This document shows, in pieces, positions 11,913 through 35,978 of a stretch of 64,000 nucleotides of DNA. The notes beneath the pieces were generated by a model. It did not search any database, was not told the origin of the DNA, and worked only from the letters and a program-made list of their open reading frames with translations. Source of the DNA: Planctomycetota bacterium (lineage in GTDB: Bacteria; Planctomycetota; UBA1135; GCA-002748355); NCBI GenBank assembly GCA_020638795.1, contig JACKHW010000003.1:338027-402026 (forward strand). The letters run 5' to 3'. The translations under genes and the position numbers were made by a program. The first letter of the stretch is position 1, and each line of letters opens with the position of its first letter.

Positions 11913-13388
11913 ATGAGCGTACCAGGCGAGCGTATTCGTCGCTCGAACGACCACGAAGTGCGCAAGGACGGGCGTTATGTCCTCTACTGGATGACGAGCA
12001 ATCGTCGCTTGCGCTCGAACTTCGCCTTGGACCGGGCTGCCGAACATTGCAAGGCGATGGATCTTCCACTGGTCGTGCTCGAAGCCCTTCGACTCGACTA
12101 TCCGTGGGCGAGCGAACGCCTACATCGCTTCGTCATCGCCGGCATGCGGGACAACGCGCAGGCTGCCGCGACGATGCAGGGCACGTTCTACTACCCCTAC
12201 GTCGAGACGAAGCGCGGTGCGGGGAAAGGACTGCTCGCGGCTCTGGCACGCGATGCTGCCGTCGTCGTGGGCGACGATTTCCCGTGCTTCTTCTTGCCGA
12301 AGATGCAGCAGGCAGCTTCGAAACAGCTCGACGTGCGACTCGAGCTGGTCGACGCGAACGGCCTGTATCCGATGCACGCGACCGACCGCGTCTTTCCGTC
12401 GGCGCACACGTTTCGTCGCCATCTCCAGAAGACCCTGCCAGCCCACCTGCCGGCGACTCCGACGATCGAGCCGTTGCGCCATGTCCAAGACGCTCCGGCC
12501 GTGGCGATCGATCGAGAGATCTTGGAACGCTGGAGGGCCACGGACCCGGAGTCCCTGCTCGATAAGGGCATCGATGCACTCGAGTTCGATCTCGATGTCC
12601 CTGCCGGTGCGGCACGTGGCGGTTCCGTCGAGGCCGGAAAGCAGCTCGAGCGTTTCGTTCGCGCGCGGTTGTCGCGGTACGCCGACTCCCGCAACGCGGT
12701 CAGCGAGCCGGCGGCGAGCGGCCTGTCGCCGTATCTACACTTCGGCCACATCGGGATCCACGAGATCCTGCACGCACTCCTCGAACACGACGGCGTCGAC
12801 CGTGCTCGATGGATCGAAGAACGCGCCGCTGCGAATGTCACCGGGAGTCGAGAAGGCTGGTGGGGTCTCTCGAACAACGCGGAGGCCTTTCTCGACGAAG
12901 CCGTCACGTGGCGCGAGGTCGGATACAACTTCGCGTCCCATCGCGACGACTACGATCGCTACGACTCGCTTCCGGACTGGGCGAAGTCGACGCTCGCCGA
13001 TCATGCGAAGGACGCACGCCAGACGCTCTACGACCTCGAGCAACTCGATGCTGCCGAGACGCACGACCCCGTGTGGAACGCTGCACAGCGCGAGCTCGTG
13101 ACCGAAGGGCGCATGCACAACTATTTGCGCATGCTGTGGGGCAAGAAAGTCCTCGAATGGACGCGCTCCCCACGCGATGCCGCGGACATCCTGATCGAAC
13201 TCAACAACCGCTACGCTGTCGACGGTCGCAACCCCAACTCGTACTCGGGCATCTTCTGGGTCCTCGGTCGCTACGACCGCGCGTGGGGACCCGAGCGCCC
13301 GATCTTCGGCAAGATTCGCTACATGAGTTCGGACAGCACGCGCCGCAAACTCGACCTCGCGGACTACCTCGTGCGCTACGGGCGTTAG
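11913..13388 (+). CDS. phr: class II deoxyribodipyrimidine (CPD) photolyase
   Basis: Contains DGRYVLYWMTSNRRLRSNFALDRA and the C-terminal GRMHNYLRMLWGKKVLEWT...DGRNPNSYSGIFWVLGRYDRAWGPERPIFGKIRYMS. The ATG at 11913 is preceded by GAGGAG. The track start 11886 is a GTG. Confidence 0.9.
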   Translation: MSVPGERIRRSNDHEVRKDGRYVLYWMTSNRRLRSNFALDRAAEHCKAMDLPLVVLEALRLDYPWASERLHRFVIAGMRDNAQAAATMQGTFYYPYVETKRGAGKGLLAALARDAAVVVGDDFPCFFLPKMQQAASKQLDVRLELVDANGLYPMHATDRVFPSAHTFRRHLQKTLPAHLPATPTIEPLRHVQDAPAVAIDREILERWRATDPESLLDKGIDALEFDLDVPAGAARGGSVEAGKQLERFVRARLSRYADSRNAVSEPAASGLSPYLHFGHIGIHEILHALLEHDGVDRARWIEERAAANVTGSREGWWGLSNNAEAFLDEAVTWREVGYNFASHRDDYDRYDSLPDWAKSTLADHAKDARQTLYDLEQLDAAETHDPVWNAAQRELVTEGRMHNYLRMLWGKKVLEWTRSPRDAADILIELNNRYAVDGRNPNSYSGIFWVLGRYDRAWGPERPIFGKIRYMSSDSTRRKLDLADYLVRYGR

Positions 13389-25617: not shown

Positions 25618-25725
25618 CGACGCAGGATAGCAGCGTGAGCAACGCGTCCCGCCTGGCGCTATCTTGTTTCGCCTACGACTTTCAAGATGCACGGCGCATC
25701 GCGCCGCTACTCGGCAACGGATCCA

Positions 25726-27636
25726 ATGACCACGAGCCTACGAACGATCCCTATCCTCCTCGCGGCAATCTGTCCTCAGGTCGTCGCCCAGGCACCATCG
25801 AAGGCGCCACGCATCCACGAGATGCTCGAGTCCTCGGGCGAGGACGTCCGGACGTACGACAGCCACGTGACGACGCTCGCCAACCCGTTTCTCGAGGGAC
25901 GGTTGCCCGGCACCCGCGGCATGGAGATCGCCAAGGAGTACGTCGAGTACTGGCTTCGGCGCGCGGGTGTCGAGCCGGCGTTCGAGGTCGATGGCAAAGC
26001 GAGCTGGCGTCAGCCGTTCTTGCTCGGGCAGAAGAGCACGATCATCAAGAGCGCGGGGCTCGCCGCTGGTGACGCACGGCTCGCGGACGGCAAGGACTTC
26101 GTGCTGACGGGACTCGGCGCCGCTTCGGGCGTCGAGCTCGACGCCGAACTCGTCTTCTGCGGCTATGGCATCGAGAGTGGCAACGACGGATACACGAGCT
26201 TTGCCGAAGACACGGATCTGAACGGCAAGATCGCGGTCGTCCTGCGCTTCGAACCGATGGACGAGCAGGGCAAGAGCAAGTGGTCGGCGCGCGGCTGGTC
26301 GGCGAGCGCCGGTTTGCAACAGAAGCTCGAAGCCTGCAACAAGCGCGGCGCGGCAGCGATCCTGCTCGTCAACACGGCGGGCGCCGATGATCCGCGAAGC
26401 AACCAACTCTACGAGCCTGGAGGCGGCGGAAGCCGTGCGGCTTCGGTTCCGGTGTTTCAACTGACGCCGGATGCGGCCGCGCGCTTCGTCGCTGCGGCAT
26501 CGGGTGACGGCCAGTCACTCGCAGCTTGGACCGCAAAGGCCAACGCGGGCACCGCAGTAGGAAGTATGGGCAAGGCGCACGTCGAAGCGGATCTCGTGCG
26601 TGAGCGCCTTCCGGGTGAGAACGTCGGCGGCGTCGTTCGTGGACGCGGTGGTCTCGCGAGCGAATGGGTCGTGCTCGGCGCACACCTCGACCACCTCGGC
26701 TACGGTAGCTTCGGCTCGCGTCGCGGCGCCGGTCAGCTCCACCCGGGTGCCGACGACAACGCTTCTGGCGCTGCCGGGATGCTGATGATCGCCGACGCCT
26801 ACCGCCGCTGGGCGAGCCTGCTTCCTCAGGACGTCCCACTGCGTAACGTGCTCTTCATCGCGTTCAGCGGTGAGGAGTCGGGACTCGTCGGTTCGCGCCA
26901 CTACGTCAAAGAGCCGATCGCGCCGCTCGACAAGCATGCGCTGATGATCAACTTCGACATGATCGGGCGCATGAAGGACGAGCGCTTGTCCGTCTCCGGA
27001 ACGCGGAGTGCGGCGGGCATGGAGGAATGGCTCGACCCGATCCTCGAGGCGAGCGACCTGACGATCGTCGAGAACGCACTCGGTTTCGGCGGTAGCGATC
27101 ACCAGGCGTTCCTCGCGAAGCGCGTCCCGTATCTCTTCTCGATCATCGCCGACTTCCACGACGACTATCACACGCCCGACGACGTCTCCTGGAAGATCGA
27201 CCGGGAGGGAGCCGTCAAGGCCGTGCACCTCTACACCAAGATCGTCGAAGCCGCGGCGATGCGCAGCGAGCCGTTCGTGTGGCAGGATCGTCAACCGCGT
27301 CGCACGAAGCCGGCCGGTGATACGGAGAGCAGTGCGCCGGCCCCGTCGCGCGCGTCGATGAAGGTGCGCTTCGGCATCAAGCCCGGCAACTACGCGGATG
27401 ACGAGGACGGCGTCCAGGTCGACGGCGTGACGCCGGACACCCCCGCCGCCAAGGGCGGAGTTCAGGAAGGCGATCGTATCGTCACGTGGAACGGCGAGAA
27501 GGTCGGCGACATCCGCGACTGGATGACGAAGCTGATGAAGCACGACCCGGGAGACAAGGTCAAAGTCGGCGTCCTGCGTGACGGCAAGAAGGTCGAACTC
27601 GTCGTCGAACTCGAAGCGCCGAACACGGGCCGCTGA
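25726..27636 (+). CDS. M28 family metallopeptidase with PA domain and C-terminal PDZ domain
   Basis: Contains HLDHLGYG, GADDNASGAAGMLMIA, FSGEESGLVGSRHY and GGSDHQAF. The PDZ-like tail is GVQVDGVTPDTPAAKGGVQEGDRIVTWNGEKV. The start is the ATG at 25726. Confidence 0.8.
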   Translation: MTTSLRTIPILLAAICPQVVAQAPSKAPRIHEMLESSGEDVRTYDSHVTTLANPFLEGRLPGTRGMEIAKEYVEYWLRRAGVEPAFEVDGKASWRQPFLLGQKSTIIKSAGLAAGDARLADGKDFVLTGLGAASGVELDAELVFCGYGIESGNDGYTSFAEDTDLNGKIAVVLRFEPMDEQGKSKWSARGWSASAGLQQKLEACNKRGAAAILLVNTAGADDPRSNQLYEPGGGGSRAASVPVFQLTPDAAARFVAAASGDGQSLAAWTAKANAGTAVGSMGKAHVEADLVRERLPGENVGGVVRGRGGLASEWVVLGAHLDHLGYGSFGSRRGAGQLHPGADDNASGAAGMLMIADAYRRWASLLPQDVPLRNVLFIAFSGEESGLVGSRHYVKEPIAPLDKHALMINFDMIGRMKDERLSVSGTRSAAGMEEWLDPILEASDLTIVENALGFGGSDHQAFLAKRVPYLFSIIADFHDDYHTPDDVSWKIDREGAVKAVHLYTKIVEAAAMRSEPFVWQDRQPRRTKPAGDTESSAPAPSRASMKVRFGIKPGNYADDEDGVQVDGVTPDTPAAKGGVQEGDRIVTWNGEKVGDIRDWMTKLMKHDPGDKVKVGVLRDGKKVELVVELEAPNTGR

Positions 27637-27654
27637 ATTCGACGCGCTGATCGT

Positions 27655-28875
27655 TCACTTCAGGATCGTGAACTTGACGGCGTTGGACCCGGAAGCGGCG
27701 ATGACCGAGCAGCGATCCGCCCAGAGGAATTGCGCGTAGAGCGTGAGTCCGACGAGCCCTCCGTCGTTCGGAATCGGCAATCTCGTACGCGTTCCTCCAC
27801 CACTGTCGGAGGCGACAGGGAGCCACAACGTCGCCGGATCGAACGGATCGATGTTGAGGTTCAGCACGCCGAGGAACAACACGGGAGGCTCCGCACTCTT
27901 GATCCCGAGCACGAGACGCCCGAACGTTGACGGCAAGGTGTTGGCCTCCGTGATCGCGAAGCTCGCATTGCCGAGCGTCGGACTGCCCGTCACACCGACG
28001 CGCGGGTTGCCGAGGCAACCCGGTGTTGCGACACCATAGAACATGACGCCGGGCATCGTGACCGCGCTGAAGCCCGTCACGGGGGCCTGCACAGGCAGGA
28101 TCGACAAGAAGGTCGTCCTGCCGTTGGTCAGGTCCACTTCGAACAGCGCGCTGCTCGACACGTTCTGGCCAGGCGACGTCACGACCAAGTAGCCCTTGTC
28201 GTCGGTTCCGGCGATGTCGAACGACACGTTCTCGCCAACGTTGATGCCGAGTGAACCGACGGTGTTGAGGACGCCCGCGTTCGGTGGATCTTGGCGAACG
28301 AGCGTGTCGAAGTTGCTGTCGATCCCGTACAGCACGGTCGTCGTGACGTTCGCCCGCGAGTTCGTGTATGCGCTGGCGACAATGTTGGGGTTCAAGCCGA
28401 ACTTCGCATCGTTCGCGGCATACGAGAGCGTTCCGTCGACCGCGACGACCGCGCCGGTGTCCGGATGGGCTCGCAGATCTTGATCCGCATTGGACGTGAT
28501 GCGGATGCGATCGACGGTCGGATTGAAATCGAAACCGAAGCTCGAGCCATTGAGCGCCGGCGAGAGCGTCGCGCCTACCGGCGTGGCGGCGCCGTTCGTC
28601 ACGTCGATCGTGTAGATGCGATGGCTGCTGCCGAGTGCGTACAGCGCCGGCTGATTCGCGGCGGATGCCGGTCGGAAGTCGATGCCGAGGATCTGTTCGT
28701 CCTTGGCGAGACCGGTGATCTGCGAGTCGCTGACGACACGTCCCGGCAAACCGATGTTGACGCGCACGAGGTGCATGTCCTCGGTCGTCATGAAGAAGTC
28801 TTGTGCGAACAAGCAAGGCGACGCAATCGACACCAATGCTGTGAGGGAACGGGCGAGAGTCTTGGAAGTCTTCAT
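27655..28875 (-). CDS. DUF4394 domain-containing secreted protein
   Basis: Contains GIDFRPASAANQPALYALG...FGFDFNPTVDRIRITSNADQDLRAHPDTGA. The ATG at 28875 overlaps the upstream stop (ATGA). Confidence 0.8.
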   Translation of the reverse strand: MKTSKTLARSLTALVSIASPCLFAQDFFMTTEDMHLVRVNIGLPGRVVSDSQITGLAKDEQILGIDFRPASAANQPALYALGSSHRIYTIDVTNGAATPVGATLSPALNGSSFGFDFNPTVDRIRITSNADQDLRAHPDTGAVVAVDGTLSYAANDAKFGLNPNIVASAYTNSRANVTTTVLYGIDSNFDTLVRQDPPNAGVLNTVGSLGINVGENVSFDIAGTDDKGYLVVTSPGQNVSSSALFEVDLTNGRTTFLSILPVQAPVTGFSAVTMPGVMFYGVATPGCLGNPRVGVTGSPTLGNASFAITEANTLPSTFGRLVLGIKSAEPPVLFLGVLNLNIDPFDPATLWLPVASDSGGGTRTRLPIPNDGGLVGLTLYAQFLWADRCSVIAASGSNAVKFTILK

Positions 28876-29570
28876 GTGCGTTCGTGGAAGAAAGGGAGTG
28901 TGGGGTCGAAGGGCCGAGGCACACCGCGGGCGGTGCGTTGGGCGAAGAGGAATCGGTAGATGAACAGGGTGAGAACGACACCCAGCGACGCGCCGAGGTA
29001 GGTCCACCGGCACGTGGATGTCGACGCTGAAGACGATGCCGTGATGGGTCCGAGCGCAAGCTCGCACGTCGGGTGTTCGGCATCGAGCAGGCAGCCCCGG
29101 TGCTCTCGACCAGCCGCCACGTCGGACACGATCACTCGATGCCCTCGAGGTAGCGAATCGAAGATCCGCGCTTCGATCGACACGCGATCGACATTCGTGG
29201 CAAGCGCGAACCGACCGACGAGCACGAAGGCCGAATCACTTGGCTCGAACCGCATCGACCAGGACTCGGCGATCTTTCGATCGATCTCGAGGGATCGCGC
29301 CGTCATCGAGCGAAGGCACTCGAGACGGAGCGCGCGATCCTCGTTCGTGAGCGTCCCGGCGGGCGACGAGGCAAGGCTCTCATCGTGCACGGACCACGAA
29401 ACGTCGAGGAACGCCGGCGTAGTGGCGTTGCGTCGGACATCGAGCGTACTGAGCCCCGGGTCGTGTGGTGGCACCGCTCGCGCTGTGACGCTGAGCAAGG
29501 TTCCGGACAGCAAGGGCAAGAGCGCTGCCGTACGTGAAATCGAGCGTGGCATCGAGCGAAGGAGGACCAT
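28872..29570 (-). CDS. hypothetical protein with signal peptide and a single C-terminal TM
   Basis: Starts MVLLRSMPRSISRTAALLPLLSGTLLSVTARA and then reads VPPHDPGLSTLDVRR.... The C-terminal TM is YLGASLGVVLTLFIYRFLF. No family was recognised with confidence. Confidence 0.45.
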   Translation of the reverse strand: MVLLRSMPRSISRTAALLPLLSGTLLSVTARAVPPHDPGLSTLDVRRNATTPAFLDVSWSVHDESLASSPAGTLTNEDRALRLECLRSMTARSLEIDRKIAESWSMRFEPSDSAFVLVGRFALATNVDRVSIEARIFDSLPRGHRVIVSDVAAGREHRGCLLDAEHPTCELALGPITASSSASTSTCRWTYLGASLGVVLTLFIYRFLFAQRTARGVPRPFDPTLPFFHERT

Positions 29571-29591
29571 GGTGCGACTCGCTCGAGAACC

Positions 29592-31040
29592 TCAATCGTG
29601 ACGGTGATTGCGGCCGTTGTGCGGTACCCCGCCGTACGGGAACACCTTGTTGTAGACCGCATCGTTTGCGTCCACGTTGTCGCCCGCCAAGCGGATGACT
29701 GGAGGACTCGTACGCAAGTCGCTGATGACGGCCGAGACTCCGATGTCGATGACGTCGTCACCGAACCTCCTGCCGTTGGGCCACCCACTCGGCACTTGAC
29801 CCTGAGCGAGCGGGCTATAGCTCGTGTCACCACCGAAAATCGAGAGGCGTGAATAGCCAGGATCGTCGGGGGTCGCGACGTGGTTGGGTCCACCACCGGC
29901 GAGCGGCACCGGATTCGTCGAGAGGTCGACCTTGATCAGGTCGGGAATGAAGATGCCCACGAGATCCGAACGGTTCGTTTCGATTCCGGGGATCGGGTTG
30001 CCCTTGAAAACGATGGCGTTGAGTAGTTTCGCGAGCTCGGGGCTATCCGCGTACTTCTTGAAGACGAGAGGATCGTCACTCGGCGGGCAGCGGTTGTAGA
30101 GATCCTTGTCGGCGATCGCGACGAACGCCTCACAGAACAGCGGATTGCCCTGACGACCGATCTGGACCCAATCACCGACTTCGATATCGCCGAGCGACTT
30201 GATTCGAACCGTGAACGTCTTGCGATACGTCGTTGCCCACACTCCGACCTGTTGCCTGTCACCGCCGAGCTGTGCCATCGGGACCGACAGGTTGATCGTG
30301 TGGACATTGAAGCCGCGTTGAGAGTCCCGAGCCGCTCCCTTGCCCCGCAGCTGGAGCAGGTCGAACACGGCTTGAATGTCGCCGTAGAACCCGTCTTCGC
30401 GTTGGCCACACCAGCTGTAATGGCCCGTCGCGAGCGCAGCCACGGTCTGGCGTGTGTATTTGTCGAGCTTCGTGACGCTATCGACGCCGATCTTGGCGAG
30501 GCCTTCACCCTGTGCCGTGTTGTACTCGGGAGTCGCAATGCCTTGATTGTTGGGTGGGACCACGCCCGACCCGAGCCTCACGACACCACTCGAGGACACA
30601 CGCGTCACCGCGTACCGCTGCGTGCGGTTCTGATCCGCGTCGTCGACGTCGTTGATGACACCGAGGTACGACTGGAGGATCGTGCCCTGCGTCTTGTACG
30701 AAGTCTTGAACTCGAAGAAGTAACTGATCGTCGGCAGGCCGCGTGCCACGTCCTTGCCGGTAGCGACGTGCAACGCGTAGAGCACGCGATCGTCGAAGTC
30801 GTATTTGTTCGGGCCGATTCCCGGATCCTCGAACGGATAGACCGATACCGCCATCTGCAGGGCTTTCTGGCCGGAGGGATCCTTGCCGACGAACGCATAC
30901 ACGTCCGTCGTATTCGCGGCGTCGTCGAGCGTGATCAACGGCGCGTCCATGTGGCTCGACGCCATGGCCGGAGCGGCCAGTGCCGCGAGTGACGCCATCA
31001 GACCTGAATACTTGATTGAGTGCCTCGAGAGCATCGTCAT
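29592..31040 (-). CDS. DUF4331 domain-containing secreted protein
   Basis: The mature N-terminus ASSHMDAPLITLDDAANTTDVYAFV matches the SSHREAP...D.TD.YAF hallmark. The start is the ATG at 31040 or 31034. Confidence 0.85.
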   Translation of the reverse strand: MTMLSRHSIKYSGLMASLAALAAPAMASSHMDAPLITLDDAANTTDVYAFVGKDPSGQKALQMAVSVYPFEDPGIGPNKYDFDDRVLYALHVATGKDVARGLPTISYFFEFKTSYKTQGTILQSYLGVINDVDDADQNRTQRYAVTRVSSSGVVRLGSGVVPPNNQGIATPEYNTAQGEGLAKIGVDSVTKLDKYTRQTVAALATGHYSWCGQREDGFYGDIQAVFDLLQLRGKGAARDSQRGFNVHTINLSVPMAQLGGDRQQVGVWATTYRKTFTVRIKSLGDIEVGDWVQIGRQGNPLFCEAFVAIADKDLYNRCPPSDDPLVFKKYADSPELAKLLNAIVFKGNPIPGIETNRSDLVGIFIPDLIKVDLSTNPVPLAGGGPNHVATPDDPGYSRLSIFGGDTSYSPLAQGQVPSGWPNGRRFGDDVIDIGVSAVISDLRTSPPVIRLAGDNVDANDAVYNKVFPYGGVPHNGRNHRHD

Positions 31041-31048
31041 CTCCTGGA

Positions 31049-32359
31049 TCAAGAGTCGCCGAACGACTTCCGCAGAAGCGTCCGTTCGGAAGGGAACAAC
31101 ACGTGCTGCACCGCACGTACCCGCTTCACGAGGTCTTGGACCTCGTCCGGAGATGCGTTGGCAGCACGAGCCACGAGTGCACCGTGCAGCAGAAGTCGGG
31201 CGTCCGGATTTCCCGTCGCGAGTACCTCCTGCGACATGGTCCATGCCTCCGCATAGTTGCCGCGACGACTGAGCGCGAACGCCATCGCACTCTTCGTCAT
31301 CGCGTCACACCGTTGTTCGAGTTCGCGCTCGAGCAGGCCATGTGCATCGTCGAGTCGCCGATTGCGAGTCGTCAGGTACAGCGCGAATGTGCGCGGGTCG
31401 TCTCTCGACCCGCTCGCCTCGAGGGATGACTCGACGCTGCGAGCTCTCGATTCGTCGCCCGATGCTCGGAGCGTATCGGCGAGCGCCCATCGGTACTCGG
31501 GAAGCGGCGCGTACTCGACAGCTCGTTCCAAGTCGACGATCGCGTCGCGCGTGCGGCCCAGTTCGTTCGCGATCGCGGCACGTACGAGAAGAGCGCCAGG
31601 GGAAGCCTCGAACGTGGACAGCGCTTCGGAGGCCCATTTGCGCGCTCGCTCGAGATCGTGACGATGAAACGCGAGGCGTGCGAGTCCGGTCAACGCCCAC
31701 GCGAGCGCCTCGGGTGCCCGTCGACTACCGGCGGCGACGGCATTCTCGAACAATTCGAGGGCGCCGTCGATATCGCCGGCGAGCCATCGCACATGGCCCG
31801 CTCGCACATACGACTGAAGGCATGGACGCAAGTCGAGCATGCGTTGATACGCCTCCGACGCTTCGACGACGGCGCCGCGATCCACGAGCACATCGCCGAG
31901 AAGCCCCCAGTCGAACGGGTTGCCTCGCATTCCGATGAGCTCACGAGCGATACGCTCGGCATCCACGAACTCGTGCATGCTTTGTGCTGCGTGTCCACGG
32001 ATCAGTAGCCCGGAGGGACGAGACTCGCCAGCTAGGCACAACGCGTTGCCGCACGCGCGAGCGATGCGATAGAAGCCGTCGTCGTGCGCTTCACGCGCCT
32101 TGGCGACGAACATCCAAGCGAGCTTCTCGACAAGGACGTCGGCACGCCCCGAAGACGCGATATCCGATTCGATGCGAGTTTGTACATCGCGAATGTCGGC
32201 ATCGAGAGCGGATTCGCCACGATGCTCGATCAGTGCAAGGCTCAGTGCTTCGCGCATGCGGGACGGCTTGTTCGAGTTCGCCGCACCCACCGCATCGAAG
32301 TCGCACGCAACGAGCGAGAGCGTGCACGTCAGAAAGGCGATCCGGTTGCGTGTCTGCAT
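31049..32359 (-). CDS. TPR-repeat lipoprotein
   Basis: The ATG at 32359 gives MQTRNRIAFLTCTLSLVAC (lipobox), followed by multiple TPR-like helices. The track start 32371 is a GTG that lies inside the predicted -10 box, so 32359 is preferred. Confidence 0.65.
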   Translation of the reverse strand: MQTRNRIAFLTCTLSLVACDFDAVGAANSNKPSRMREALSLALIEHRGESALDADIRDVQTRIESDIASSGRADVLVEKLAWMFVAKAREAHDDGFYRIARACGNALCLAGESRPSGLLIRGHAAQSMHEFVDAERIARELIGMRGNPFDWGLLGDVLVDRGAVVEASEAYQRMLDLRPCLQSYVRAGHVRWLAGDIDGALELFENAVAAGSRRAPEALAWALTGLARLAFHRHDLERARKWASEALSTFEASPGALLVRAAIANELGRTRDAIVDLERAVEYAPLPEYRWALADTLRASGDESRARSVESSLEASGSRDDPRTFALYLTTRNRRLDDAHGLLERELEQRCDAMTKSAMAFALSRRGNYAEAWTMSQEVLATGNPDARLLLHGALVARAANASPDEVQDLVKRVRAVQHVLFPSERTLLRKSFGDS

Positions 32360-32366
32360 CACGCAA

Positions 32367-32399
32367 AGCACTACGTTCCGAGCCGCAATGCGGATTCAA
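32367..32399 (-). promoter_or_regulatory. ECF-type promoter candidate P-tpr: TTGAATCCGC-N13-ACGTAGTGCT
   Basis: On the minus strand, TTGAATCCGC is at 32399-32390 and ACGTAGTGCT at 32376-32367. Both 10-mers and the spacing are identical to the box upstream of the ECF sigma gene. Confidence 0.6.
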
Positions 32400-32437
32400 G
32401 TTCGCATCGAGCAGCGTGACATCACGCTGCGATGAAT

Positions 32438-33067
32438 TCAGGCAGCGAACTCGTCGTAGAGGGACGTTCGAATCAACAACAAGCAACCGTTGCGCGTGAA
32501 CTGTTCCTCGTGCCTCGTCCCAGCAGGTGCGTGTTCGTAGTCGCCGCTCCGCATCTCGCTGACCGTCGTACAGAGATCGCCTTCGAGCACGAAGCACTCC
32601 TCACGACCGGCATGGACATGTGCGGGAAAGCGCGCACCGGGATCCATTTGCACGAGACAAGTCATGCGGCCTTCACGCTCGTCGACGAGCAATCGCCGCA
32701 TTCGTATGCCGACGATCGCCGTGGTCTCCCACGCAGTCGATTCTTCGGGTACGCGCGGTGCGATGAAGTACTCGTCGACCGAGCGTCGAGCCGACGACGC
32801 GACCTTGGCAAGAAGCGGGCTGTTGCCGGTAGTGCGCCGCGCGCGTGCCAGGACCCAGGAACGCACGGAATCTGGCACCGAGCGTACTTCGAGCCGCCGG
32901 ACGACTTCGTCGTAGAGAATTGACAGTTTTTTGACGAGCCTCCTGCACGACGAACACTCGCGTTGATGTCGGTCGTAGCTCGCCGCAGATTCGTGGTCGA
33001 ACTCACCGAGTACGAACACGATCGCGTCGTCGCGATGGCTGCATTCGTTCTCCACGAAATCGTTCAT
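32438..33067 (-). CDS. chrR: ChrR-like anti-sigma factor (zinc-binding ASD plus C-terminal cupin)
   Basis: The ATG at 33067 overlaps the sigma stop (ATGA). The HQRECSSC segment gives the Hx3Cx2C ZAS motif. The cupin tail is FPAHVHAGREECFVLEGDL...YEHAPAGTRH. Confidence 0.8.
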   Translation of the reverse strand: MNDFVENECSHRDDAIVFVLGEFDHESAASYDRHQRECSSCRRLVKKLSILYDEVVRRLEVRSVPDSVRSWVLARARRTTGNSPLLAKVASSARRSVDEYFIAPRVPEESTAWETTAIVGIRMRRLLVDEREGRMTCLVQMDPGARFPAHVHAGREECFVLEGDLCTTVSEMRSGDYEHAPAGTRHEEQFTRNGCLLLIRTSLYDEFAA

Positions 33068-33666
33068 GCGTCGTGCGCCTCGTTCTCGAGCAAACTTCTC
33101 AATTCCATTAGGCCTCGCCGGATCCACGTCTTCACGGTACCGATCGGCAAGTGGCTTCGCCGTGCGATCTCTTGATGCGTCAATCCATCGAGAAACGCGG
33201 CCAGGATCACGGATCGACGCTTCTCCGGAAGACGACCGATCGCGCGATGCAGGCGTTTTGCCTCTTCTGCGTGTTCGTATTCCAGTGCGGGATCGGCCCC
33301 TTCCGCGCGTAGGTCACGATCGTCGACATCGCAAGTCGAGACGGACTGTCGGCCACGCGACCGCAACACGTCGAGGCTCCGACTCTTCGTGAGCAACCAG
33401 AGCCAGTTGGTGACGGTCCCGCGAGCCCGATCGAACGTCGACGCGCGTTCCCAGACCGATTCGTAGACAAGGGCTGTCACCTCCTCGGCAAGTTGGCGAT
33501 CGCGTACGACACGGAGCGCGAGTCCGAAGACAGATCGGCTAGTCGCATCGAAGAGACGCTCGAACGCATGAGACGAACCAACCACGACCCCGTCGAGAAG
33601 CTGGCAGAGCAGGGCGTTGTCGAATCGCGCGGATCCGTTCTCGTGCACGCTCACGCGATCCATCAT
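33064..33666 (-). CDS. ECF RNA polymerase sigma factor (RpoE/ChrR-partner type)
   Basis: Region 2 is FERLFDATSRSVFGLALRVVRDRQLAEEVTALVYESVWERA. Region 4 is LDGLTHQEIARRSHLPIGTVKTWIRRGL. The start is the ATG at 33666. Confidence 0.85.
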   Translation of the reverse strand: MMDRVSVHENGSARFDNALLCQLLDGVVVGSSHAFERLFDATSRSVFGLALRVVRDRQLAEEVTALVYESVWERASTFDRARGTVTNWLWLLTKSRSLDVLRSRGRQSVSTCDVDDRDLRAEGADPALEYEHAEEAKRLHRAIGRLPEKRRSVILAAFLDGLTHQEIARRSHLPIGTVKTWIRRGLMELRSLLENEAHDA

Positions 33667-33702
33667 GAGTTTCGAGTTCGCTTCCCGGGCCGGGTCATCC
33701 TG

Positions 33703-33735
33703 AGCACTACGTCGTGCCGACCCGGGCGGATTCAA
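33703..33735 (-). promoter_or_regulatory. ECF-type promoter candidate P-sig (autoregulatory): TTGAATCCGC-N13-ACGTAGTGCT
   Basis: On the minus strand, TTGAATCCGC is at 33735-33726 and ACGTAGTGCT at 33712-33703. The -10 box ends about 37 nt upstream of the sigma ATG. Confidence 0.6.
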
Positions 33736-33755
33736 AAAACTCGAAATGGGACTCC

Positions 33756-35921
33756 TCAGCGGAACGTCACGTATTTCCCGCCCGAATCGAGGGCCAGATG
33801 CTCGAGGATCTGCAGCGATCCGCCGACCGCGACCGTGTGGATCACGATCTTCCGGTGCTCGTTCCATCGCTTGACGTCGTCGCGGATCTGGGCCGGATCC
33901 GTGACTTCACCCGCGGTCGGCTCGCCGTCGGACAGCAAGTAGATCGTGTCGACATCGGGATCGTCGAACGCTTCCTTGACGGCGTCGTACAGATTGGTGC
34001 CACCACCGGCGCCGAGGCGATCGATCCAGACCTTCGCCTGCTCGCGAGTCTTCTTGGTCATACCGCCGATGTCCTCCTTGGCCCAACGCTCGACACCGGA
34101 CGAGAAGACGAAGATGTTGAACAGCGCATTCCCGGCGAGACTCTCGATGGCCGCGAGTAGTTCGCGCTTGGCGACTTCGAGCCGCGTCGCTTCGCGCTTG
34201 CCTTCGTAGCGGCCGAGAACCGGTTCGACCATCGAACCCGAGACGTCGAGGATGAAGATCACGCGCTGCGACGTGATCTCGACACCGAAGAACTTCGCGA
34301 CGACGGTCGTTTCCTTGAGGCGCTTCAGTTCTCGCTCGGTCGCGGCCTTTTCCAACTCCGCAGCGGTCGGTACCTCGAAGCTCTTGCCTTCCTTGTCCCA
34401 CCAGGCACGCCACGCCTTCGCGTCCTGCTCGAAGGTCTGCGCCGTCAAACTCCATAGCGCGTCGGCGACTGCGATTCCGAGGCGACCCGATTCGCGACCG
34501 AGAGCATCGATCAGGAGTGGGACCGCCTCCTTGTTGCGCGAATCCCTCAGCGCGTCGATGGCCACGTAACGCGTCGACCAGTCCTTGTGGATGAGTCCCT
34601 GCTTGAGATATTCGAGAAGGCCCTTCGCGTCCGCCTTCGAGAGTTGTTCGAGTGCCGCATTGCGAATGTCACGATCCGGATCCGTGACGAACGCCTCGAG
34701 GCGTTTGACCCATGCGGCCGAACGCCCTTCGAGCTTGCTGATCGCTTCGATGACGAAGCGAACATCCGCCGGCTCCTTCGGCTTGTCGAGCATCTTGTAG
34801 AGCTCTTCGAGCGAGTCCTTGTCACCGCGTTCGGCGAGTACGAGCGCCGTCTCGCGACGCACCTCGGCATCCTTGTCGGCGAGGCCCTTGCGGATCTTCT
34901 CGACGAGTTTCGGATCGTCGATGTGCATCGTCGCCCAGAGCGCGAAGACCTTTTCGTAGGGCGCGCCACGACCGATCAGCTTCACCAGCTTCTGGTCGAC
35001 GGACTTGTCCTTCATGTCCCCGAGTAGGCTGGCCATCGTGCGTCGGAGGTCTTCGGGCGTGACCGCTTTCTTCTTCGCGAGCTTGAGGAACGCGTTCGCG
35101 AGCTTCGCGCCTTGCAGCTCGGCGAGGATCTTCGCGGCCTCGGATCGCGTCATGCCGGGCACGTCGACGCGTTCGAACATCTTGGTCGCGAGTTCGGCGA
35201 CGCGTTTCGATCCCTTCCGATGCAATGCCTTGAGGGCAACGTTGCGCATCTTCTGACTGGTGTCCTTCTCGAGGATGTCGATCAGATCCTTCTCCTCGAC
35301 CTTCTCGGCAACGGCTTCGAACGCAACGACACGGATGTCCTCGAGTTCGGGACGATCGGGCGGGTCGTCCTTACCACGCTTCGCGCCCTTCTTGCTGCGC
35401 CCCTTGGCCTCGAATGGCTTCCAGAGTTCTTTGTAGAACGGCAGGTCCTCGTCACTCAGGTTGCGCACGTGCGCCGAAAGCGCCGCCTTGCGCACCGTAT
35501 CATCGGCTTCCGACTGCACGATCGTCGCGAGGAAGTGTTTTCCGAGTGACGGGCTGTTCGCGAGCGCATCCACGGCCGCCTGGCGCAGCTCCGGCTGCGT
35601 CGCCGTCGTTGCGACGTTGGTGATCTTCTCGAGCGCCGGCTGCTGCGCTTCTTGGATCCCGTCGAACTTTGCGAGCGCGAAGACGACTTCGCGCTTCAAA
35701 TAGACACTGCCGGCCTTGTCATAGAACTCGACGAGTCCCTGCATCGCGTCGCGCGTGCCGATCTCCGCGATCTTGTACAGGTCTTCGGGCTTCGCATCGC
35801 TTCCGGCGGCCTTGACCTTGTCGAGGAGCGACGCGAGTTCTTTGGCTTGGGCGAGACACGTCCCGCTGACGCACGAAACGAGCGTGCACAGCAACAGAGT
35901 GGCGTTTCGGAACGGATTCAT
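33756..35921 (-). CDS. HEAT-repeat protein with C-terminal von Willebrand factor A domain, secreted
   Basis: The ATG at 35921 gives signal peptide MNPFRNATLLLCTLVSCVSGTCLAQA. Repeated HEAT-like helices follow. The vWA start is VIFILDVSGSM, and the tail is LLSDGEPT...IHTVAVGG. Confidence 0.7.
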   Translation of the reverse strand: MNPFRNATLLLCTLVSCVSGTCLAQAKELASLLDKVKAAGSDAKPEDLYKIAEIGTRDAMQGLVEFYDKAGSVYLKREVVFALAKFDGIQEAQQPALEKITNVATTATQPELRQAAVDALANSPSLGKHFLATIVQSEADDTVRKAALSAHVRNLSDEDLPFYKELWKPFEAKGRSKKGAKRGKDDPPDRPELEDIRVVAFEAVAEKVEEKDLIDILEKDTSQKMRNVALKALHRKGSKRVAELATKMFERVDVPGMTRSEAAKILAELQGAKLANAFLKLAKKKAVTPEDLRRTMASLLGDMKDKSVDQKLVKLIGRGAPYEKVFALWATMHIDDPKLVEKIRKGLADKDAEVRRETALVLAERGDKDSLEELYKMLDKPKEPADVRFVIEAISKLEGRSAAWVKRLEAFVTDPDRDIRNAALEQLSKADAKGLLEYLKQGLIHKDWSTRYVAIDALRDSRNKEAVPLLIDALGRESGRLGIAVADALWSLTAQTFEQDAKAWRAWWDKEGKSFEVPTAAELEKAATERELKRLKETTVVAKFFGVEITSQRVIFILDVSGSMVEPVLGRYEGKREATRLEVAKRELLAAIESLAGNALFNIFVFSSGVERWAKEDIGGMTKKTREQAKVWIDRLGAGGGTNLYDAVKEAFDDPDVDTIYLLSDGEPTAGEVTDPAQIRDDVKRWNEHRKIVIHTVAVGGSLQILEHLALDSGGKYVTFR

Positions 35922-35978
35922 ACAGCGATCGTCGGGGCCCCGGTGGTCACTGTCAAATGGCCAGGCGAGTTGCAGCAC

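Follow-up and report, generated by a model that had tools for sequence, protein, structure and literature searches.

What an extracytoplasmic function (ECF) sigma factor with a ChrR-like partner might control in a planctomycete, and to what end, is the question raised by a six-gene locus on the minus strand of a 64,000-nt stretch of contig JACKHW010000003.1 (assembly GCA_020638795.1, a Planctomycetota bacterium), referred to below as the window. The answer that we consider probable is an autoregulated ECF18/19-like switch with a soluble ChrR-type anti-sigma factor, driving an operon for the handling of divalent metals in the cell envelope. The regulatory logic is ordinary, in that an autoregulated ECF pair would be joined by a further promoter ahead of an adjacent operon, and the interest lies in the output, a widespread and unstudied module. 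The ECF sigma gene (33666-33064; 200 aa; Pfam Sigma70_r2 and Sigma70_r4_2) shares an ATGA overlap of stop and start codons with the soluble anti-sigma gene (33067-32438; 209 aa; Cupin_7 plus H34-x3-C38-x2-C41). After a 78-nt gap, inside which lies the second of two promoter boxes, come the four genes of the output operon, encoding a tetratricopeptide repeat (TPR) lipoprotein (32359-31049; 436 aa; lipobox LVAC), a secreted DUF4331 protein (31034-29592; 480 aa), a 232-aa protein (29570-28872) with a signal peptide or anchor, a predicted ZrgA/PA4063-like domain and one C-terminal transmembrane helix, and, as the last gene, a secreted DUF4394 protein (28875-27655; 406 aa). The gap between the TPR and DUF4331 genes is 8 or 14 nt, depending on whether the ATG at 31040, which adds two residues, or that at 31034 is chosen; 21 nt separate the DUF4331 gene from that of the 232-aa protein, whose stop codon again shares an ATGA overlap with the DUF4394 start. 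An original prediction made from the sequence alone had listed these six genes, and their order, gaps and overlaps were all reproduced when the minus strand was read; its domain labels (sigma, ChrR-like cupin, TPR, DUF4331 and DUF4394) were borne out by Pfam and NCBIfam.

The pattern TTGAATCCGC-N13-ACGTAGTGCT (33 nt) occurred exactly twice in the window, both times on the minus strand (33735-33703 and 32399-32367), and no third copy was found there even when up to three mismatches were allowed; shuffled sequences gave a mean of 0.01 matches per shuffle, and none of 100 shuffles reached two. Box 1, the predicted autoregulatory promoter, has the -35 element TGAATCC at 33734-33728, a 16-nt spacer and CGTA at 33711-33708, followed by GTGCT. 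Box 2, the predicted operon promoter, has TGAATCC at 32398-32392 and CGTA at 32375-32372; the ATG of the TPR gene stands 12 nt after this CGTA, and the transcript would be near-leaderless. The two boxes had been described as having identical 10-mers and identical spacing, which is exact in the window, but the full identity is not kept in the relative L001 (95-96% identical), in which the sequences on either side of the -10 element are not the same in both boxes (GCGTAGTGGT vs ACGTAGTGCT). The identity of the complete 10-mers in the window therefore appears to be partly incidental, and the core under selection would be TGAATCC-N16-CGTA(G/A)TGC. No credible sigma-70 promoter or intrinsic terminator was found in 27400-34000.

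For a comparison with relatives, one genome per species was scanned with a DUF4331 alignment, which yielded at least 569 loci; the best 80 of these (L001-L080), from Planctomycetota, Verrucomicrobiota, Acidobacteriota and one Arenicellales gammaproteobacterium, were compared with their 10-kb flanks, gene conservation being assessed by tblastn and all-against-all clustering of open reading frames (ORFs). In 41 of 72 loci, spread over four phyla, the core ATCC-N16-CGTA stood just ahead of the TPR-DUF4331 pair, and it also preceded 15 of 33 neighbouring sigma genes; conservation of the motif, named beforehand as one of the points on which the proposed module could fail, is thus what the relatives display. 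With this relaxed core, 42 matches were obtained in the 18.8 kb of TPR-upstream windows vs 57 in 2.38 Mb elsewhere, that is, 2.23 vs 0.024 per kb, an enrichment of about 93-fold. The stricter pattern G[AC]ATCC-N16-CGT[AC] gave 77 matches in the 80 loci and 22 kb of the window taken together, the window part supplying one TPR and one sigma match. Thirty lay immediately upstream of TPR homologues and at least nine upstream of sigma homologues, and the remaining placed matches preceded a divergent gene of ~465 aa (n = 8), a DUF4394 gene (n = 2) or the gene of a small secreted protein (n = 3).

The box keeps its place ahead of the TPR gene also in some loci whose sigma gene is divergent, distant or not on the contig. 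Its spacer is fixed at 16 nt and free in sequence, the pattern to be expected of a promoter and not of a mobile repeat, and the -10 element is conserved in extended form, with a bias after CGTA towards (A/G)-T-G-C-(C/T)-T. In most loci the start codon follows CGTA by 7-27 nt, so short-leader or leaderless transcripts are to be expected. The occurrence of the core upstream of both the TPR pair and the sigma genes supports autoregulation together with a second, dedicated operon promoter as the best reading, and the adjacent sigma factor, predicted to read both boxes, almost certainly controls the operon.

Several further matches and small genes were recorded around the boxes. Three one-mismatch matches in the window (20363, 26819 and 37347) were considered as additional regulon members and rejected, because all of them lie within ORFs and their number is about that expected by chance (1.06 in total). 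Nine nucleotides downstream of the box 1 CGTA begins an upstream ORF of 11 codons, MTRPGKRTRNS (33698-33663, minus strand), whose TGA overlaps the sigma ATG (tcATGAtg). In L001 it differs by two amino acids and retains frame and stop; possibly it is leaderless, with its translation coupled to that of the sigma gene. A protein of 456-472 aa without a Pfam match is encoded between the anti-sigma and TPR genes, divergently from the latter, in the Verrucomicrobiota loci L029, L032 (6981-8399, minus strand), L035, L037, L038, L041, L043, L044, L055, L056, L073 and L079, and also in L027; in eight loci a separate ECF-type box for this gene stands back-to-back with that of the TPR gene, which makes it a further candidate member of the regulon. 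In Candidatus Udaeobacter the same box stands 11 nt before the start of a small secreted protein (97-142 aa, no Pfam match) encoded just upstream of the TPR operon (L057 5081, L069 2301 and L071 8073, all plus strand).

The operon itself is conserved in part. A TPR homologue lies directly upstream of DUF4331 in 75 of the 80 loci, and members of one protein family lie directly downstream of it in 57 of 71 loci (65/80 by clustering). DUF4394 was found within the operon only in L001, L002 and L007, and in L038 and L055 it stands apart, in a PEP-CTERM form with its own box. DUF4394 is therefore best regarded as an accessory member, the conserved output apparently being the TPR lipoprotein, DUF4331 and the ZrgA-like or HupE/UreJ-type protein, a three-gene core thereby defined across four phyla. 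The proposal that the four downstream genes are the output of the ECF system is supported by the conserved box ahead of the TPR-DUF4331 pair and has to be narrowed for DUF4394. More broadly, the idea of an ECF-controlled envelope module is supported by the conservation of promoter and operon, with corrections to the presumed ECF family and to the conserved output.

The family assignments are firm for both domains of unknown function: DUF4331 matched PF14224 at 1e-75 (255.7 bits vs a cut-off of 27; profile positions 1-420 of 421), and DUF4394 matched PF14339 at 1e-74 (251.1 bits vs 29.6; positions 2-229 of 230). The TPR protein matched TPR_2, TPR_12, TPR_1 and other Pfam models. A homologue with 96% identity to the DUF4331 protein is encoded in a Planctomycetes metagenome-assembled genome (MAG), and there are thousands more; clustering of the family at 50% identity leaves 2935 representatives. 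The main text of the searchable literature names neither DUF4331 nor DUF4394, and these two large, unstudied families are now tied to a conserved promoter. The window DUF4394 protein has an extra C-terminal domain of ~135 aa (27655-28060, minus strand) without a family match; the same extension is present in L007, and in Verrucomicrobia a PEP-CTERM sorting signal takes its place.

What the operon may do is suggested above all by its third gene. The family directly downstream of DUF4331 is usually 350-380 aa long and consists of a signal peptide, an N-terminal periplasmic domain, with (A/P)-H-D-P-G-(L/I)-S at its start and G-H-R within it, and, behind this, a HupE_UreJ_2 permease (2e-44 in Pfam). 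The 232-aa protein of the window had no match in Pfam or NCBIfam, and a single-sequence homology search with it returned only itself, entered in NCBI as a hypothetical protein of a Planctomycetes MAG on a 559,648-bp contig, and one relative; a profile made from the locus translations (90-sequence alignment) was needed for the family. It is a permease-less short form of the HupE-fusion family, and the short architecture, a periplasmic domain plus one transmembrane helix, is common to L001, L002, L031, L033 and the window. H144 was invariant, and H36 with its adjacent D-P-G and the G-x-R residues (G143-H144-R145) were present in at least 90% of the family sequences.

Members of the HupE/UreJ family are known for uptake. 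Like the Ni/Co permeases of that family, the long forms carry HupE_UreJ_2 behind a signal peptide and an N-terminal His motif; unlike them, they add a periplasmic domain of ~150 aa and have DUF4331 and TPR genes as neighbours, not hydrogenase or urease genes, and in the window protein the permease is lost, one transmembrane helix being left. In L008 (12602-14626, plus strand) and L013 (12550-14562, plus strand) the HupE-fusion gene is followed at 4-16 nt by a gene for a TonB-dependent receptor (Plug and beta-barrel), which would extend the operon in these loci with an outer-membrane importer. In L047 a ~235-aa ORF of the same homology cluster (12503-13210, plus strand) stands ~40 nt after the HupE fusion, the Pfam check having covered L008 and L013 only. 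Many of the long forms also contain an EF-hand-like loop, D-x-D-x-D-G-x-l-D-x-x-E, at about alignment columns 52-87 (e.g. L004 11491-12060), which gave weak Pfam EF-hand matches in 10 of 31 members and, as a profile, weak matches to calmodulin in the PDB; it is not in the short form of the window.

The AlphaFold2 (AF2) model of the 232-aa protein had a pLDDT of 80 overall and of about 90 in the domain, and Foldseek matched it to zinc-bound ZrgA of V. cholerae and to PA4063 of P. aeruginosa (8f1b, 8ezw, 7bgo and 7aly) with a probability of 1.00, E values of 4e-7 to 2e-4 and target-normalised TM-scores of 0.57-0.69; the modelled domain has the non-canonical ferredoxin-like fold of these two proteins. 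ZrgA and PA4063 are periplasmic zinc binders of zinc-import operons, with a conserved site made up of His residues near the N-terminus, Glu66 and a later His (PMC9820375). The predicted domain of the window is like them in its fold, in having His close to the N-terminus and again past the central region, and in being linked to a transporter in relatives. It is unlike them in its partner, which is an ABC transporter (ZrgBC) in those systems and a HupE/UreJ secondary permease in the relatives of the window, with none in the window; in its control, since Zur is reported for ZrgA (ZrgABCDE) and PA4063 (PA4063-PA4066), whereas an ECF-type promoter is found here; and in being membrane-anchored, without a His-rich loop and without sequence similarity. 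Literature searches for HupE with an anti-sigma factor and a cupin, or for HupE with Zur, returned nothing relevant.

The N-terminus of DUF4331 points in the same direction. In the window protein the signal peptide is followed by A-S-S-H-M-D-A-P, which was invariant in the alignment of close homologues, and throughout the family, sampled as close homologues and 50% cluster representatives with as little as 33% identity, [A/G/S]-[S/A]-S-H-x-[D/E]-A-P comes directly after a hydrophobic signal sequence. All 87 N-termini with a match to H-x-[DE]-[AGS]-P carried the post-signal motif; as these were preselected, the count shows only the constancy of the flanking A/S-S. With [A/L/V]-x-A-S-S-H at about residue 25, the -3/-1 rule predicts a mature end at either A|SSH, which would be an amino-terminal Cu(II)/Ni(II)-binding (ATCUN-type) motif, or ASS|H, which would leave an N-terminal His.

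Taken with the cupin site of the anti-sigma factor, described below, the HupE_UreJ fusion, the ZrgA-like fold, the conserved His residues, the A-S-S-H of DUF4331 and the TonB-dependent receptor make the handling of divalent metals in the envelope the most likely function, as judged from sequences and models. In particular, the fusion, the fold, the His residues and the post-signal A-S-S-H are metal hints that converge and turn "function unknown" into a testable hypothesis. Uptake is the most likely direction in the permease-bearing relatives; for the window organism one can go no further than binding, hand-over or buffering. Binding of sigma by the anti-sigma domain and positive autoregulation are established ECF biology. 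In the proposed mechanism, the anti-sigma factor would release the sigma factor, and RNA polymerase would start at the two near-identical promoters TGAATCC-N16-CGTAGTGC. Initiation ahead of the sigma/anti-sigma pair would give positive feedback, and initiation in the 78-nt gap ahead of the TPR gene would give the four-gene operon as a short-leader or leaderless mRNA. The products, namely the TPR lipoprotein, DUF4331 with its predicted S-S-H or His end, the anchored ZrgA-like domain and the DUF4394 surface protein, would capture a divalent transition metal within the envelope, be it Ni, Co, Zn or Cu, and hand it over, for uptake or buffering, and the metal sites in the cupin and zinc-binding anti-sigma (ZAS) domains of the anti-sigma factor would act as the sensor, possibly of the same metal. 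The module is found in no fewer than 569 species-level genomes, of Planctomycetota, Verrucomicrobiota, Acidobacteriota and some Proteobacteria. In a more specific version, DUF4331 would be the primary metal capture protein through its processed N-terminus, and the cupin/zinc-finger anti-sigma factor, where it is of ChrR type, would be a metal sensor that releases sigma on shortage; this we put forward tentatively, as possible but doubtful. If true, it would represent an ECF-based alternative to control of the Zur or NikR type.

Several observations weigh against the metal-handling operon under ECF control. The third protein of the window is without the six-transmembrane PF13795 permease and none is encoded in the 64 kb, where neither a HupE gene nor paralogues of the six genes were found elsewhere; with no permease, import cannot be read for the window organism from the locus alone. 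The likeness to ZrgA is at the level of fold only, with 7-14% identity and neither a sequence nor a Pfam signal, and the 232-aa protein has no His-rich stretch and the operon no ABC genes. A Pro stands just before the conserved His of this protein, and this His is therefore probably not the mature N-terminus. The cleavage site of DUF4331 is predicted by the -3/-1 rule only. A fold assignment for DUF4331 was attempted and rejected (AF2 model from a 22-sequence alignment, pLDDT 58, pTM 0.67); Foldseek against the PDB gave only meaningless Ig-like matches with TM-scores below 0.2, and a profile search of the PDB sequences found no homologue. Finally, 12 Planctomycetota loci (in the range L004-L017) carry the operon without the ECF box and without a neighbouring sigma gene of the family, the nearest ECF gene in L004 being a 26%-identical match about 6 kb away, so that the link between regulator and operon is not obligatory.

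These 12 loci share another motif, GACAT-N17-ACCT(G/C)A, which ends some 8 nt short of the TPR start codon, and in several of them a second copy is found nearby on the opposite strand; examples are L008 (8507, plus; 8377, minus), L013 (8581, plus), L015 (8584, plus; 8534, minus), L016 (8555, plus; 8498, minus) and L017 (8609, plus; 8553, minus). Just upstream of the TPR gene, several of the loci have a gene for a Ser/Thr kinase-TPR protein of 1000-1300 aa, divergent in five loci and co-directional in two. To judge from the shared motif, the operon is evidently under a second regulatory system in these loci, possibly a kinase-linked sigma factor. The operon is thus a portable output unit, placed under different control by different lineages, since these 12 loci use a different motif and lack the family sigma. 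A GACAT-type motif at 29022 (minus strand), inside the gene of the 232-aa protein, was judged to be a chance match, as the window holds four matches vs ~2.4 expected from the rate in the loci.

Among the alternatives, a response to metal excess instead of one of acquisition, in which secreted binders buffer toxic periplasmic metal and sigma is released at excess, is unlikely. It would suit the window version, with its binding domains and no permease, and a contribution to Ni/Co resistance has been reported for the ECF18 factor RpoP of C. metallidurans (supplement to the ECF classification, bioRxiv 10.1101/2019.12.11.873521); in most relatives, however, a HupE/UreJ-type permease is joined to the binding domain, and some add a TonB-dependent receptor, both of which are hallmarks of import.

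The sigma factor matched Sigma70_r2 at 3.5e-9, Sigma70_r4_2 at 3.6e-16 and TIGR02937 with 71.7 bits (cut-off 42.9), and with regions 2 and 4 only in about 200 aa it is an ECF (group 4 sigma-70) factor. Its only Cys residues are at positions 21 and 111, none being in region 4 (138-190). The best NCBIfam models were PRK12534 (6e-38) and SigK PRK09646 (8e-37), both below their cut-offs, and the best PDB matches, RpoE of R. sphaeroides (2e-21) and SigK of M. tuberculosis (6e-20), were near-equal; these surrogate models and PDB scores of SigK and RpoE type do not separate the clades. In the anti-sigma factor, which has no transmembrane or hydrophobic segment, the C-terminal part matched Cupin_7 (ChrR cupin-like; 7e-23) and carries H-x-H-x3-E...H, and the N-terminal ZAS motif H34-x3-C38-x2-C41 was read from the sequence. 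It matched PDB 3o14, 'anti-ECF sigma factor ChrR', at 1e-10 with HxHxxxE and the distal His aligned, and an NCBIfam ChrR-family subfamily model at 3e-15, below the cut-off. The ChrR family models TIGR02451 and NF051881 were not passed (56.7 bits vs 124.5 and 37.3 vs 300), and ChrR of R. sphaeroides (2q1z) was not matched at E <= 0.01. The protein is ChrR-like in architecture and not an equivalog.

Sigma homologues were found within 10 kb in 42 of the 80 loci, and ChrR-like anti-sigma genes in 32. The cupin H-x-H-x3-E...H is kept in ChrR-type partners of three phyla, the ZAS cysteines not always. The gene after the homologous sigma gene encodes RskA_C in L030, L042, L057, L077 and L033 and Cupin_7 in L003 and L019, and promoter and target operon are the same with either partner. 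The soluble ChrR-like and the membrane RskA-like anti-sigma factors thus appear to be interchangeable in the relatives: one unit of sigma factor, promoter and operon would be wired either to a cytoplasmic or to a membrane sensor, a clean natural example of a sensor swap in ECF signalling.

The ECF classification 2.0 is that of Casas-Pastor et al. (NAR 2021). Published promoter consensus sequences are GCATCC / CGTAT for ECF18 and GTGATC / CGTATA for ECF11 (PMC13492112). According to the ECF classification supplement, ECF18 is proteobacterial, with RskA-like single-pass anti-sigma factors, two region-4 cysteines and the promoter TGCATCTT/CGTA; DUF4394 lies immediately upstream of the sigma gene in its subgroups s12 and s15, and DUF4331 two genes downstream in s13. 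ECF19 has Planctomycete, Verrucomicrobial and Acidobacterial members, its subgroup s19 having soluble ChrR-like anti-sigma factors, and ECF11 is 100% proteobacterial, with genes for cyclopropane-fatty-acid synthase, SnoaL, SDR and DUF1365 as neighbours (bioRxiv 10.1101/2019.12.11.873521 supplement). The association of DUF4331 and DUF4394 with ECF18 is therefore already on record, as a bare list entry in the supplement of that re-classification.

Compared with ECF18, the window locus has a similar promoter (TGCATCC-N16-CGTA in relatives; TGAATCC in the window, one base off) and has in its downstream operon both DUF4331 and DUF4394, families that are conserved neighbours in s12, s13 and s15; with ECF18 and ECF19s19 it shares autoregulation, predicted here, and an anti-sigma gene immediately 3' of the sigma gene. 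It is unlike ECF18 in that its anti-sigma factor is of the soluble cupin type, not RskA single-pass, its sigma factor is without region-4 cysteines where ECF18 has two, and the organism is a Planctomycetota MAG, whereas ECF18 is proteobacterial only. ECF19s19 resembles it in the soluble ChrR-like cupin anti-sigma factor, in the presence of Planctomycetes in the group and in a promoter with ATC at -35 and CG/TG at -10. With the RpoE-ChrR pair of ECF11 it has in common a soluble ZAS-cupin anti-sigma factor (H-x-H-x3-E...H), the 4-nt overlap with the sigma gene, autoregulation as predicted here and the CGTA -10 element; it differs in the -35 element (GTGATC vs TGAATCC in the window and TGCATCC in relatives, which are closer to the ECF18 consensus), in phylum and in gene neighbourhood, the R. 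sphaeroides regulon consisting of singlet-oxygen defence genes, and in that its relatives exchange the ChrR-type for an RskA-type partner with promoter and operon unchanged. By their letters, the boxes are taken to be of the published ECF18/ECF19 promoter type and not of the Rhodobacter sigmaE type, and the module is best placed in the ECF18/19 (SigK/RpoT) clade with a ChrR-type partner, ECF19s19-like.

The analogy with the singlet-oxygen response of the sigmaE-ChrR pair of Rhodobacter, on which the original prediction had drawn, should not be carried over, because the sigma factor is best placed with SigK/RpoT under an ECF18/19-type promoter and its ChrR-like partner is exchanged for RskA-type ones in relatives. 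A canonical sigmaE-ChrR oxidative or singlet-oxygen response, with the cupin as a sensor of reactive oxygen species, the operon as a means of envelope repair or protection and any metal binding as incidental, is quite improbable here, for all that the anti-sigma factor has the ChrR architecture (ZAS and Cupin_7, soluble, immediately 3' of sigma), R. sphaeroides RpoE is marginally the closest solved structure to the sigma factor and CGTA is also the -10 element of ECF11 promoters. ECF11 is reported to be exclusively proteobacterial, with GTGATC at -35 and another neighbourhood, and the anti-sigma factor falls far below the ChrR equivalog cut-offs, with 2q1z unmatched; and since relatives couple this sigma factor, promoter and operon to membrane anti-sigma factors of RskA type, the output is not tied to a ChrR-specific signal.

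A non-metal role for these secreted or surface proteins, such as adhesion or surface remodelling, comparable with that of the fasciclin-domain antigens of the SigK regulon and with the metal features as coincidence, is very unlikely. It would agree with the ECF18/19 regulons, which typically hold secreted proteins of unclear role (fasciclin, DUF4394 and MPT70/83; bioRxiv 10.1101/2019.12.11.873521 supplement), with the PEP-CTERM sorting signals of DUF4394 in relatives and with the want of a detectable structural relative of DUF4331, but it has to account for four independent signals of metal type, namely the HupE_UreJ_2 fusion, the ZrgA-like fold, the two conserved His residues and the family-wide A-S-S-H. 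That box 2 is no working promoter, the operon being read through from box 1 and the second copy being due to chance or recent duplication, is hardly credible, given a box at the homologous position in 41 of 72 loci, including those with the sigma gene divergent, distant or not on the contig, and two copies vs 0.01 expected, even though no terminator-like structure lies between the anti-sigma and TPR genes and the closest relative does not keep the full 10-mer identity.

The genes on either side of the locus seem unrelated to it. On the 5' flank, a gene on the minus strand (33756-35978) encodes a 740-aa protein that is HEAT-repeat/vWA-like by eye, and its stop codon lies 20 nt upstream of box 1. 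On the 3' flank, a convergent gene (25687-27636, plus strand) encodes a 649-aa secreted protein, M28-peptidase/PDZ-like by eye, and ends 18 nt from the DUF4394 stop codon.

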